Below the pieces are notes generated by a model, which was not told the origin of the DNA, made no database searches, and saw only the letters and a list, made by a program, of their open reading frames with translations. From NCBI RefSeq assembly GCF_003018255.1, contig NZ_CP027440.1: a stretch of 64,000 nucleotides of DNA; one strand, given 5' to 3'. The first letter of the stretch is position 1, and every line of letters starts with the position of its first letter. Origin of the DNA: Escherichia coli. Lineage in GTDB: Bacteria; Pseudomonadota; Gammaproteobacteria; Enterobacterales; Enterobacteriaceae. This document shows, one piece after another, positions 5,596 to 63,748 of the stretch. Made by a program: the position numbers and the translations under genes.

Positions 5596-7995
5596 TCAGA
5601 TTTTCAGCGGTAACATACTGCTCATCCAGCCTGGAATTTCTTCGGCGGGCAGGGGGCGGGAAAAGAAATATCCCTGAATAACGCGACAGTGGATCTTGCG
5701 TAGCATCTCAAATTGCTCTTTGGTTTCGACGCCTTCCGCCACGACGGTTAAATTAAGGCTTTGCCCAATGCTGGTAATGGCTTCAAGTAAGGCAAGGATG
5801 CGTTTTTCGGTCAGACAACGATCGACAAAACTTTTGTCAATTTTGATTTCCGTTACCGGAAGACTGACTAAGCGGGATAATCCGGAAAAGCCCGTGCCAA
5901 AATCATCTACCGATAAACCGATGCCCATATCGCGCAGGATCTGAATGCGTTTAAAGATTTCGGTATCGTGTTCCATCATCATGCTTTCCGTGATTTCCAC
6001 CGTCAGCTGGTGGCCGTCGATACCCCAGGCTTGCATTGCATCAGACACCTGATTAGGCAGCTGATTACTGCGAAAGTGCAGCGCCGACAAGTTAACGGAT
6101 AACGCCGGGATATGAATATTCTGGCTACGCCATTCTGCTAACTGACGGCAAGCTTCCGCGATGACCCAGCGCCCAATATTTTCGATTTCACCGATCTCTT
6201 CTGCGAGAGGAATAAACCGTGAAGGGGGCACATGACCATGCAGGGGATCGTGCCAGCGAGCAAGGGCTTCGATGCCGTACAGTTCACCCGTTTCTGCGAA
6301 GATTTGCGGCTGGTAAACCAGTTTCAGTTGGTTATTGCTAATTGCTTCTTTCAGCGCCGCGCCTAAAACCAAACGCTCTTTTACCATTTCGTTCATCGCC
6401 GGGCTGAAGAACTGCCAGCCGTTACCGCCATTTTTGCGAATAAAATCCATTGCATTGTGAGCAGTGGAGAGCAGGTAATCGCGGTTTTTACCCACGTCGT
6501 AGCTGATGCCAATGCTCAAGGTGAGCGGGAATGGTTTATCGTCAATCATTATCGGCTTGCTGACCACATTCCGTAGCTCATCGGCGATCTGCGTAATGTT
6601 ACTGACGTCGTTTTCCAGGCTCACGAGGACAAACTGCGTACCTTCGATACGACAGAGATATTGATCCGGTTTGAGTTTTTCACGAAAGCGATTGACCACT
6701 TCCAGCAATGCCTGATCGGCCCACGCATAGCCAAGGCTATCAATCACATCCTGAATATGGTCAACACCGATGAGATACACCACCGGAGAGACGGCTTTGT
6801 CGACCAGGTCATCGAGGTAATTGTGCAGGTTATTGCGATTTGGCAGACCGGTCATCGGATCAAATTGGATGAGTTGTTCAATATGCTGACGGCTTTTTTC
6901 CTGTTCCAGCGCCAGCGCGGCCATATGCTGGCTGATATCTGCCACGCGTTCGATAAAGGCGCTGGTTTCTGCTCCTGACGAGGTTTTAATTTGCAGGATC
7001 CCCGCAGGCGCACCATCACGCTGACGAATGGTCGCTGACCAGCTTTGCGCATTTTGAACTTCTGCACCGTGCGAAGATGACGCCCAGTGTATCGGCATCC
7101 CGTTGCGCAGCGCGAACAGCGAAACATGCGATTCGTTGAGTACAGATTCGATGTTACGACAAATGATTTCCCCCATTTCATGAAATGGCGGGCTGCTGCA
7201 CATGGCGGCGAGAATATTGCCTTCAAGCTGGCGGATTTGCCTTTCTTCGGTGATATCCGAGAATGTCATTACCAGGTTCTGCAGATGCGCGAGCACGTCA
7301 TAAACCGGGCTGATAGAGGCTTTAATCCAGATTTTTTCACCGGTGCGCGTCAACAGCAGAAATTCGTCCTGATCGCGGGCGGTTTTCCATAGCAACTGCT
7401 GTAAACGAATACGGTTATCAGCAGGGAATTCTGGAATGTTCAGGAGTGTATCGGGCTGCATACCGCTGGCTTCGTTAATGCAGTAACCAAACATTTCGGT
7501 AAATGCGCGATTGCACTGCACAATATGGCGTTCCGGATCGAGGACAATCACCGGTCGGTCGAGATGGTCAACGGCAATAATCAATTGTCGGGTCTGTTCT
7601 TTTTGCGCCATTTCTACGCTGGCATCCCGTACCAGCGCCAGGTAATAAACTTTCCCCTCGGCGCTCACTTTCGATAGCGCAAAACGGGTCCAGATTTTAC
7701 TGCCGTCTTTTTTCTCCAGCTGCAGCTCCCGACTCATCCCCTCGACGCGAGCTTTACCACCTTCACGGTTGTGACGAATGTATTGAGGATGCGCAGGACG
7801 CAAATCCCGCGGAATCAGCATATCAATGTTATTGCCAATGACTTCTTCACGTTTGTACCCCCAGAGCTTCTCTGCGGCGGGGTTGAAAAACATCACTTCA
7901 TCATTTTCGTTAATTAACACCGCGCCCATCATATTTTGCTCAAGGGCGGGGAAAAAAATGCCATCGGCGGCATTATCCGCATCGGTTAGCTTCAT
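5596..7995 (-). CDS. dosP: Oxygen-sensing c-di-GMP phosphodiesterase DosP (PAS-PAS-GGDEF-EAL, 799 aa), start ATG at 7995
   Basis: ORF 5596..8019 trimmed to MKLTDADNAADGIFFPALEQ with RBS GAGGT; sequence recognised. Confidence 0.93.
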   Translation of the reverse strand: MKLTDADNAADGIFFPALEQNMMGAVLINENDEVMFFNPAAEKLWGYKREEVIGNNIDMLIPRDLRPAHPQYIRHNREGGKARVEGMSRELQLEKKDGSKIWTRFALSKVSAEGKVYYLALVRDASVEMAQKEQTRQLIIAVDHLDRPVIVLDPERHIVQCNRAFTEMFGYCINEASGMQPDTLLNIPEFPADNRIRLQQLLWKTARDQDEFLLLTRTGEKIWIKASISPVYDVLAHLQNLVMTFSDITEERQIRQLEGNILAAMCSSPPFHEMGEIICRNIESVLNESHVSLFALRNGMPIHWASSSHGAEVQNAQSWSATIRQRDGAPAGILQIKTSSGAETSAFIERVADISQHMAALALEQEKSRQHIEQLIQFDPMTGLPNRNNLHNYLDDLVDKAVSPVVYLIGVDHIQDVIDSLGYAWADQALLEVVNRFREKLKPDQYLCRIEGTQFVLVSLENDVSNITQIADELRNVVSKPIMIDDKPFPLTLSIGISYDVGKNRDYLLSTAHNAMDFIRKNGGNGWQFFSPAMNEMVKERLVLGAALKEAISNNQLKLVYQPQIFAETGELYGIEALARWHDPLHGHVPPSRFIPLAEEIGEIENIGRWVIAEACRQLAEWRSQNIHIPALSVNLSALHFRSNQLPNQVSDAMQAWGIDGHQLTVEITESMMMEHDTEIFKRIQILRDMGIGLSVDDFGTGFSGLSRLVSLPVTEIKIDKSFVDRCLTEKRILALLEAITSIGQSLNLTVVAEGVETKEQFEMLRKIHCRVIQGYFFSRPLPAEEIPGWMSSMLPLKI

Positions 7996-8019
7996 GATTA
8001 CCTCTGCATCCTGGCGCAT

Positions 8020-8238
8020 CTAAAGACTGGCTTTACAGAGTTCAACACGGGTTCTACCTCGTCTTTTGGCGATATACAGAGCTTCATCGGCTATTTGAAT
8101 GAGGCGCTCATAGTCAGGATGACCATTAAACATGGCGGCACCGATGGAAAGTGAGAGGGCAATATCCTCGCCGTTTGCGGCTTTAAAATAATGTCGACCT
8201 TTATGGTTAAACCGCAGGCCAAAATCAACCAAACACAA
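8020..8238 (-). pseudogene. dosC: 3' remnant of diguanylate cyclase gene dosC; only the final part of a GGDEF domain is encoded
   Basis: 72-codon ORF ...DFGLRFNHKGRHYFKAANGEDIALSLSIGAAMFNGHPDYERLIQIADEALYIAKRRGRTRVELCKASL ends 24 nt before the dosP ATG; only about 565 bp separate yddW and dosP where a ~460-codon gene is expected. Confidence 0.75.
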
Positions 8239-8509
8239 CGTGCGAGATCGACTAACTGCACCATATTCTCCTGAAATATGAAGATATACTGAAAAGAAAT
8301 AAGCGACTTAGGACAGTTTCAATCTACGCTACTGTTCTTGAGAAGAGTATAGCCCATCGTAATTATTTTTCGGTGACAGCGAATATCGTATGTTTTTTCA
8401 TATTCATACATTTTTATTAGGGGATTTATGACTGTTTAACTAAGTGTGGTTAATTGCGTAGTTAATTTGACTTAAGTAAGCATGATTACTAGTGGGATAT
8501 TTCAAGAGG

Positions 8510-8542
8510 GTAACAAGCCGGGGGGAAAGCACCGGCTTGTTA
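8510..8542 (-). terminator. 12-bp perfect stem-loop just downstream of the yddW stop (no U-tract); possible terminator or RNA-stability hairpin
   Basis: gtaacaagccgg-N9-ccggcttgttac perfect inverted repeat. Confidence 0.4.
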
Positions 8543-8560
8543 CAAAGTAAGAATGGGAGT

Positions 8561-62639: not shown

Positions 62640-62666
62640 TGAACGGAGATAATCCCTCACCTAACC

Positions 62667-62705
62667 GGCCCCTTGTTACAACTGTGTACAAGGGGCCTGA
62701 TTTTT
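62667..62705 (+). terminator. Rho-independent terminator of mgtS
   Basis: ggccccttgt-N11-acaaggggcc followed by tgattttt. Confidence 0.8.
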
Positions 62706-62714
62706 ATGACGGCG

Positions 62715-62820
62715 AAAAAAAACCGCCAGTAAACCGGCGGTGAATGCTTGCATGGATAGATTTGTGTTTTGCTTTTACGCTAACAGGCATTTTCCTGCAC
62801 TGATAACGGATCGTTGACAC
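62715..62820 (-). ncRNA. mgrR: Candidate PhoP-regulated sRNA MgrR, convergent with mgtS; 5' end approximate
   Basis: Reverse-strand terminator (ccgccggtttactggcgg plus T8) at 62715-62740 and a PhoP-box-like direct repeat GTTTAA-N5-GTTTAA on the reverse strand at 62846-62863, giving a transcript of about 100 nt; not ORF-like. Confidence 0.45.
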
Positions 62821-62857
62821 AGTAGCATCAGTTTTCTCAATGAATGTTAAACGGAGC

Positions 62858-63748
62858 TTAAACTCGGTTAATCACGTTTTGTTCGTCAATAAACATACAG
62901 CGATTTCTTCCGGTTTGCTTACCCTCATACATTGCCCGGTCCGCTCTTCCAATGACCACATCCAGAGGCTCTTCAGGAAATGCGCGACTCACACCTGCTG
63001 TCACGGTAATGTTGATATGCCCTTCAGAATGTGTGATGGCATGGTTATCGACTAACTGGCAAATTCTGACACCTGCACGACATGCTTCTTCATCATTAGC
63101 CGCTTTGACAATAATGATAAATTCTTCGCCACCGTAGCGATAAACCGTTTCGTAATCGCGCGTCCAACTGGCTAAGTAAGTTGCCAGGGTGCGTAATACT
63201 ACATCGCCGATTAAATGCCCGTAGGTATCATTAACCAATTTAAATCGGTCAATATCCAACAACATTAAATAAAGATTCAGAGGCTCAGCGTTGCGTAACT
63301 GATGATCAAAGGATTCATCAAGAACCCGACGACCCGGCAATCCCGTCAAAACATCCATATTGCTACGGATCGTCAGCAAATAAATTTTGTAATCGGTTAA
63401 TGCCGCAGTAAAAGAAAGCAACCCTTCCTGAAAGGCGTCGAAATGCGCGTCCTGCCAGTGATTTTCAACAATAGCCAGCATTAATTCCCGACCACAGTTA
63501 TGCATATGTTGATGGGCAGAATCCATTAGCCGAACGTAAGGTAATTCATCGTTATCGAGTGGTCCCAGATGATCAATCCACCGACCAAACTGGCACAGTT
63601 CATAAGAATGGTTATCCGTTATTTCTGGCTTACTGGCATCTCTCGCGACCACGCTGTGAAACATACTTACCAGCCACTGGTAGTGGGCATCGATAGCCTT
63701 ATTGAGATTTAACAAGATGGCATCAATTTCCGTTGTCTTCTTGATCAT
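62858..63748 (-). CDS. dgcZ: Zinc-regulated diguanylate cyclase DgcZ/YdeH (296 aa), start ATG at 63748
   Basis: ORF trimmed to MIKKTTEIDAILLNLNKAID; GGDEF motif RYGGEEF; recognised. Confidence 0.93.
   Translation of the reverse strand: MIKKTTEIDAILLNLNKAIDAHYQWLVSMFHSVVARDASKPEITDNHSYELCQFGRWIDHLGPLDNDELPYVRLMDSAHQHMHNCGRELMLAIVENHWQDAHFDAFQEGLLSFTAALTDYKIYLLTIRSNMDVLTGLPGRRVLDESFDHQLRNAEPLNLYLMLLDIDRFKLVNDTYGHLIGDVVLRTLATYLASWTRDYETVYRYGGEEFIIIVKAANDEEACRAGVRICQLVDNHAITHSEGHINITVTAGVSRAFPEEPLDVVIGRADRAMYEGKQTGRNRCMFIDEQNVINRV

Follow-up and report, generated by a model that had tools for sequence, protein, structure and literature searches.

The stretch of Escherichia coli chromosome analyzed here (64 kb; hereafter the window) is a conserved, terminus-proximal segment that extends from ddp to dgcZ and includes dif. 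It encodes several enzymes of c-di-GMP (cyclic dimeric guanosine monophosphate) metabolism, namely the phosphodiesterase DosP and the diguanylate cyclases DgcF (YneF) and DgcZ (YdeH), together with a remnant of dosC, the gene for the cyclase that pairs with DosP. An earlier note on this DNA had given positions for dosP, the dosC remnant, dgcF and dgcZ, and had read the motifs RMGGEEF and RYGGEEF in the two remaining cyclases; Pfam, phmmer and the translations bear out all these positions, and both motifs are exact. Genes were annotated from matching RefSeq genomes (Prokaryotic Genome Annotation Pipeline, PGAP) in the left part of the window, and from APEC O2-211 and K-12 in its right half. Our subject is the dosCP locus, where the following features are found:

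5596–7995, minus strand: dosP, 799 amino acids (aa), intact, with two PAS domains, a degenerate GGDEF domain and an EAL domain by Pfam
8020–8227, minus strand: dosC remnant overall, made up of the last 55 codons and a 43-nt internal island
8020–8184, minus strand: dosC 3′ remnant, 165 nt, the last 55 GGDEF-domain codons and stop, which aligns to dosC of E. coli 042
8185–8227, minus strand: dosC internal island, 43 nt, middle-domain codons for DFGLWFNHKGRHYF, between a 531-bp and a 686-bp deletion
8091–8264, minus strand: chimeric yddY′ open reading frame (ORF) of 57 codons, the first 11 from yddY and the others running out of frame through the dosC remnant
8265–8509, minus strand: dosCP leader and promoter region, retained, with CTATACT at 8346–8352 (minus strand)
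8510–8543, minus strand: 12-bp perfect inverted repeat shortly after the digH stop codon

Comparison by blastn with the intact loci of E. coli 042 and strain 200164 resolves the dosC region into three collinear pieces, separated by gaps of 531 and 686 bp: piece 1 (window 7990–8184) contains the dosP start, a 24-nt spacer and the final 165 nt of dosC; piece 2 (8185–8227) is the island from the DosC middle domain; and piece 3 (8228 onward) is the upstream leader. The deletion totals 1217 bp, of which the 531-bp part corresponds to 177 codons and is in frame, and the 686-bp part takes the dosC start codon and 41 nt of the leader. A global MAFFT alignment against intact dosC misplaced the remnant, and the blastn pieces were used instead. 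In the remnant, Pfam matches only positions 115–160 of the 161 in the GGDEF profile, plus an 18-aa trace of DosC_2nd, and neither Pfam nor a six-frame scan finds a GG[DE]EF motif there. The Protoglobin family, which Pfam matches in the intact 042 DosC, gives no match in the remnant, the globin region lying inside the 686-bp deletion. The deleted gene has no globin sensor and hardly any middle domain left, and it has also been stripped of its GGDEF active site, its start codon and its ribosome-binding site. PGAP calls the remnant a pseudogene (“missing N-terminus”), and DosC is certainly non-functional here, as the earlier note had held in describing the gene as disrupted. No insertion sequence element or long repeat was found at the deletion junctions, only microhomology of 1–5 nt. 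A conservation test detected no extra constraint on the remnant: ST131 and FDAARGOS_536 differ there at 8/566 nt, versus 11/2400 nt in dosP.

The upstream end of the 686-bp deletion lies inside yddY, after approximately codon 11. In K-12, yddY (b4746) is a 13-aa small gene annotated 37 nt upstream of dosC, and its product has been detected by epitope tagging (PMC6001520). The chimeric ORF of the window opens at the yddY start and is preceded by yddY’s own GGAG Shine-Dalgarno sequence; ST131, FDAARGOS_536 and CFT073 share this 57-aa ORF, which is annotated in UTI89 as UTI89_C1704.

We evaluated how common the deletion is in a collection of 5426 complete E. coli genomes. A 161-nt query over both junctions gives one contiguous match, with 98–100% identity, in 1049 of them (approximately 19%). 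A full-length dosC query is covered to at least 80% in 4294 genomes and to approximately 15% in the deletion class, which includes uropathogenic isolates and a Nissle-derived strain. Inspected directly, the loci of ST131, FDAARGOS_536 and CFT073 have junctions, remnant and 57-aa ORF all as in the window, and the B2 deletion allele known as c1919/c1918 in CFT073, as UTI89_C1704 and as the ST131 short protein has the same junctions, island, 165-nt remnant and ORF. The literature has described this state from several sides: CFT073 has c1918 and c1919 in place of dos and yddV (PMC3484386), DosC is “frequently absent” (PMC5635171), and ST131 has “transformed DosC into a novel short protein” (bioRxiv 10.1101/2022.05.07.487787). 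The lesion in dosC is a compound deletion of long standing, standard in ST131, CFT073 and UTI89 (classic phylogroup B2), and is already known; it is neither an outlier, as the earlier note had it, nor a loss peculiar to the source strain. Over positions 5000–13500 the window is 100% identical to only two complete genomes, JNE23-011 and JNE112863, both from Japanese human isolates. The earlier note had named a functional dosC elsewhere in the genome as a refutation of its account; in each of these two sister genomes a query that contains the dosC remnant matches at a single place, and the whole collection contains only 9 dosC-matching places beyond one per matching record, 5 of them on plasmids.

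The neighboring dosP is intact. Its EAL domain matches positions 3–236 of the 236 in the profile (236 bits), with the EAL motif starting at residue 576, and the heme ligands His77 and Met95 (807-aa numbering) are read from the translation as H69 and M87 (799-aa numbering). The frame is open upstream to an ATG at 8019 (7996–8019), which gives an 807-aa ORF with the older start, abutting the dosC stop; these two starts account for the two residue numberings in the literature (His77 versus His69). The gene is annotated as dosP by PGAP in JNE23-011, where it is 100% identical, and differs from that of K-12 by 8 aa and 50 nt. Over 374 nt upstream of the deletion (window 8227–8600), identity to the intact 042 locus is 98.4%, and both the yddY start and dosP’s own Shine-Dalgarno sequence are retained. 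We regard CTATACT as a putative sigma-S −10 element; upstream of the remnant, scanning for the sigma-70 consensus gave no match on the minus (coding) strand. The inverted repeat is probably the digH terminator, predicted to insulate the dosCP promoter region. In relation to K-12 dosCP, the locus shares its position, leader, dosP and the neighbors ddpX and digH, whereas it lacks the 1217 bp and DosC, and a truncated yddY now runs on into the remnant. It also differs from CFT073, where dosP is frameshifted; that strain has lost both halves of the DosC/DosP module.

How the allele came into this lineage can be approached through its flanks. The ddp operon is missing in ST131, FDAARGOS_536 and CFT073, and lsr is also missing in CFT073; the window keeps both ddp and lsr, and its lineage is therefore not typical B2. 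Strain 200164 (Mali) is near-clonal here, differing from the window at 1/3513 nt on the ddp side and at 0/2950 nt across digH–gadC. Its dosC is intact, and 65 substitutions relative to the window are packed in 5514–8747, an interval in which one tract stands out:

7201–8227, no strand: B2-like tract that spans the two junctions of the deletion as well as the 5′ third of dosP, near-identical to ST131, whereas the flanks are not

Here the window and ST131 differ at 2/1026 nt, versus 39/2950 nt in digH–gadC (Poisson P ~1e-4), and the window and 200164 show 21 differences. In the junction segment, 200164 differs from 042-like strains at background level (12/984 nt, versus 32/2950 nt in the flank). 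The wider tract 5560–8600 is a mosaic in which only approximately 7201–8227 is clearly B2-like; over it, no single donor with more than 99% identity was found in the collection, and the best non-identical matches (98.6–98.7%) have dosC intact. Farther right, gadB (11708–12986) has 26 substitutions relative to 200164 and none in the 3 kb to its left, probably a further tract of recombination or the result of conversion between gadA and gadB.

The remaining c-di-GMP genes lie toward the right end of the window:

51310–52728, minus strand: dgcF (yneF), a 472-aa membrane diguanylate cyclase, with RMGGEEF at nt 51580–51600 (residues 377–383)
51682–51684, minus strand: dgcF codon 349 (Y349D), in the conserved GGDEF core, ND-x-[Y/F]-GH motif
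62858–63748, minus strand: dgcZ (ydeH), a 296-aa zinc-regulated diguanylate cyclase, CZB and GGDEF domains by Pfam, with RYGGEEF at nt 63119–63139 (residues 204–210)

The gene order is ddpFDCBAX, dosP, the dosC remnant, digH, gadCB, pqqL, yddBA, ydeMNOP with safA, a fimbrial operon and dif; then hipAB, an autotransporter pseudogene, the lsr operon, tam, yneE, uxaB, dgcF, yneG, glsB and sad; and finally ptrR, ydeA, marCRAB, eamA, ydeE, mgtS and dgcZ. K-12 has the same c-di-GMP loci in the same order, with 60.5 kb from dosP to dgcZ. A six-frame phmmer search of the whole 64 kb with GGDEF, EAL and DosC queries returned nothing beyond dosP, dgcF, dgcZ and the dosC remnant. The ORF at 48520–49485 encodes the bestrophin YneE rather than YneF.

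These data bear on several ways of reading the locus. The loss of dosC could be a recent deletion specific to the source strain, newly unbalancing DosC and DosP, as the earlier note implies; in favor of this, only two complete genomes match the window at 100% over 5000–13500, and its closest relative, 200164, has dosC intact. Against it, 1049 complete genomes, ST131 and CFT073 among them, share exactly these junctions, this 43-nt island and this chimeric ORF, and the same ORF is annotated in UTI89. De novo origin was checked through differing junctions, and the junctions proved to be the same as in B2 strains; since a compound junction of this kind is not plausibly formed twice, we reject a recent private deletion as highly improbable. 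The allele could instead be ancestral to the window’s lineage and shared with B2 by descent, with 200164 having regained dosC by recombination. The 3′ part of dosP, where the window is nearer to 042-like strains (14/1687 nt) than 200164 is (25/1687 nt), speaks for this view, and 200164 may likewise hold imported DNA, its DosC being protein-identical to that of 042. However, an ancestral copy should diverge like its flanks, which are 1.3–4% from ST131, whereas the junction segment is only 0.2% away; the background-level divergence of 200164 from 042-like strains in that segment also argues against a regained dosC. We judge shared descent to be quite unlikely, and the pattern points to import of the deletion allele into the window’s clone from a B2-like donor by homologous recombination as the most likely origin.

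It is also conceivable that dosP is itself dead, silent or decaying, and that the whole O2 module is lost rather than unbalanced. This has happened elsewhere: CFT073, with the same deletion, carries two 1-nt insertions in dosP (alignment nt 1312 and 2312) and its translation stops at approximately residue 439, and strain B-11870, in which dosC is absent, has a stop codon in dosP. In the window, by contrast, dosP has an unbroken ORF in which the heme ligands and the EAL domain are conserved, its leader and Shine-Dalgarno sequence survive together with the yddY start, and its ratio of nonsynonymous to synonymous substitution rates (dN/dS) is 0.055 relative to K-12 and 0.067 relative to ST131, values that include divergence predating the deletion or derived from the mosaic 3′ part. 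As judged by these ratios, dosP is under purifying selection. In CFT073, a biofilm phenotype followed deletion of c1918, which means that the locus is expressed in that strain (PMC3484386). A dead dosP in the window seems to us doubtful. The idea that dosCP, dgcF and dgcZ form a functional c-di-GMP cluster, so that their co-location carries meaning, is hardly tenable. The inventory of GGDEF and EAL genes in K-12 is 29 in a 4.64-Mb genome; assuming this density, approximately 0.4 are expected per 64 kb, and three independent loci in 58 kb exceed random expectation (Poisson P ~0.007). Yet approximately 0.5 windows with three such loci are expected per genome by chance, and one is therefore unsurprising. 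The gap from dosP to dgcF is approximately 43 kb, and from dgcF to dgcZ a further 10 kb; between them lie unrelated operons in both orientations, including gad, pqqL, fimbriae, hipAB, lsr and mar, and intervening operons are deleted in B2 strains with the three loci undisturbed. Among the c-di-GMP genes only dosC and dosP are adjacent, and adjacency or co-transcription of the kind that marks a cluster goes no further than this pair; we know of no shared regulation of dosCP, dgcF and dgcZ. These are unrelated loci, neighbors only via species-wide gene order, and the grouping of c-di-GMP enzymes on which the earlier note remarked is ordinary synteny.

Based on these observations, we propose, with a probability of roughly 85%, that (i) the gene arrangement is conserved synteny, (ii) the dosC lesion is an old, imported B2-type deletion and (iii) orphan DosP is a long-standing natural configuration. 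Several points weigh against this proposal. The dN/dS values for dosP include the older or mosaic divergence just mentioned, and the frameshifted and truncated genes of CFT073 and B-11870 mean that an orphan dosP is not always maintained in deletion strains. The promoter comes from sequence alone, its −10 element having been matched by eye, and the direction proposed for the recombination depends on a single close relative and on parsimony. Finally, the label “B2-type” for the allele of the 1049 genomes derives from the named reference strains (ST131, CFT073 and UTI89).

Because the leader, the start of yddY and dosP’s own Shine-Dalgarno sequence all survive, transcription of the orphan gene from its native promoter, and its translation, probably continue. 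DosP would then act alone as an O2-activated phosphodiesterase, its partner cyclase being absent, and the predicted direction of the effect is a lower local c-di-GMP level. A K-12 dosC mutant has the matching genotype, and in it the expression of csgBAC and pgaABCD is lowered. The intact dosCP operon has been described as a push-pull O2 rheostat (bioRxiv 10.1101/2024.07.24.604967). The earlier note’s claim that DosC and DosP are unbalanced holds at the level of genotype, with DosP intact in a strain without DosC, but not as a recent or strain-specific imbalance.

By position and sequence, DgcF and DgcZ are orthologous to their E. coli counterparts, and the GGEEF active sites of both are intact. 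DgcF has hydrophobic N-terminal segments and matches all of the Pfam GGDEF profile (positions 1–161 of 161, 135 bits). Within the substrate-site and core motif D-x-D-x-F-K-x-x-N-D-x-[Y/F]-G-H it reads NDNDGH where other E. coli have NDNYGH, and Y349D is its sole residue difference from the DgcF of APEC O2-211; no further single-nucleotide polymorphism (SNP) lies within 80 nt of codon 349. A 55-mer centered on the SNP finds the D349 allele in 0/5426 complete genomes, and an exact-sequence look-up finds the exact D349 protein in 49 contigs and 74 index blocks of draft/SRA assemblies. The substitution recurs across dozens of draft assemblies; Y349D, which at first looked private, is a real variant at the level of the clone and no sequencing error. 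Its cost against the Pfam GGDEF profile is 5.8 bits (140.8 to 135.0), and the counterpart of position 349 is F in WspR, L in the 3icl GGDEF protein, Y in DgcZ and W in DosC. Y349D may be a natural loss-of-function allele of DgcF. That the other cyclases remain, as the earlier note put it, is correct insofar as dgcF and dgcZ are intact ORFs with GGEEF sites, but has to be qualified for DgcF, whose substitution falls at a conserved core position. K-12 DgcF (315 aa) differs in another way: K-12 lacks 498 bp, corresponding to window 52296–52793. This gap takes the 5′ 433 nt of dgcF and the region upstream, and the K-12 protein is an N-terminally truncated form.

In DgcZ, residues H22, C52, H79 and H83, which we take to be the zinc ligands of the CZB domain, are all present. 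The only difference from K-12 is G50E, two residues from C52; with a 55-mer centered on this SNP, E50 was detected in 78 complete genomes, 200164 among them, and the substitution is a lineage polymorphism. Downstream of dgcZ, STnc560 (62633–62846, minus strand, 280 bits) is the sole Rfam match above gathering score in the window, and overlaps the K-12 region of MgrR, mgtS and mgtT.

Elsewhere in the window, the exact 28-bp dif site (35107–35134, minus strand) is unoccupied. At the dif position JNE23-011 carries a long tandem array of filamentous prophages (of the Zot, pII and ssDNA-binding protein type) with at least 4 copies of an 8.3-kb unit, and JNE112863 a mixed filamentous prophage array that includes a shorter, satellite-like unit repeated four times. 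These two genomes diverge from the window from approximately 34.9 kb on, at the prophage arrays, and were dropped as annotation source for the whole window; the best identity of the right half to any complete genome is 99.3%, which places the source strain outside the collection of complete genomes. The fimbrial usher gene (29910–32561) is full length and encodes 883 aa, whereas K-12 ydeT is a 1149-nt fragment, and the ydeQRST-type fimbrial operon looks intact in the window strain. The yneO/ydeK autotransporter gene (36969–38945) is a truncated pseudogene, likewise in APEC O2-211, and yneK (approximately 56660–56770) is a short remnant relative to the 1116-nt K-12 gene.

DosC loss is already on record for uropathogenic and B2 E. 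coli, as is variation between strains in the GGDEF/EAL gene set. Being a common allele passed on by inheritance and no private event, the lesion is unfit to explain strain-specific phenotypes without comparison to the approximately 1000 genomes that share it. We consider it improbable, though worth stating, that the dosC-null allele spreads between lineages as loss of DosC is advantageous, and that this clone has stepwise down-tuned c-di-GMP synthesis, by import of the dosC allele and then by DgcF Y349D. In a lesser variant of this interpretation, the 57-aa YddY′ fusion, present in the four inspected deletion-bearing strains and annotated in UTI89, may be a real new small protein. Of possible interest to specialists are the evidence for a null allele crossing into a non-B2 background by recombination and the clone-level Y349D substitution in DgcF, which could be a natural loss-of-function allele.

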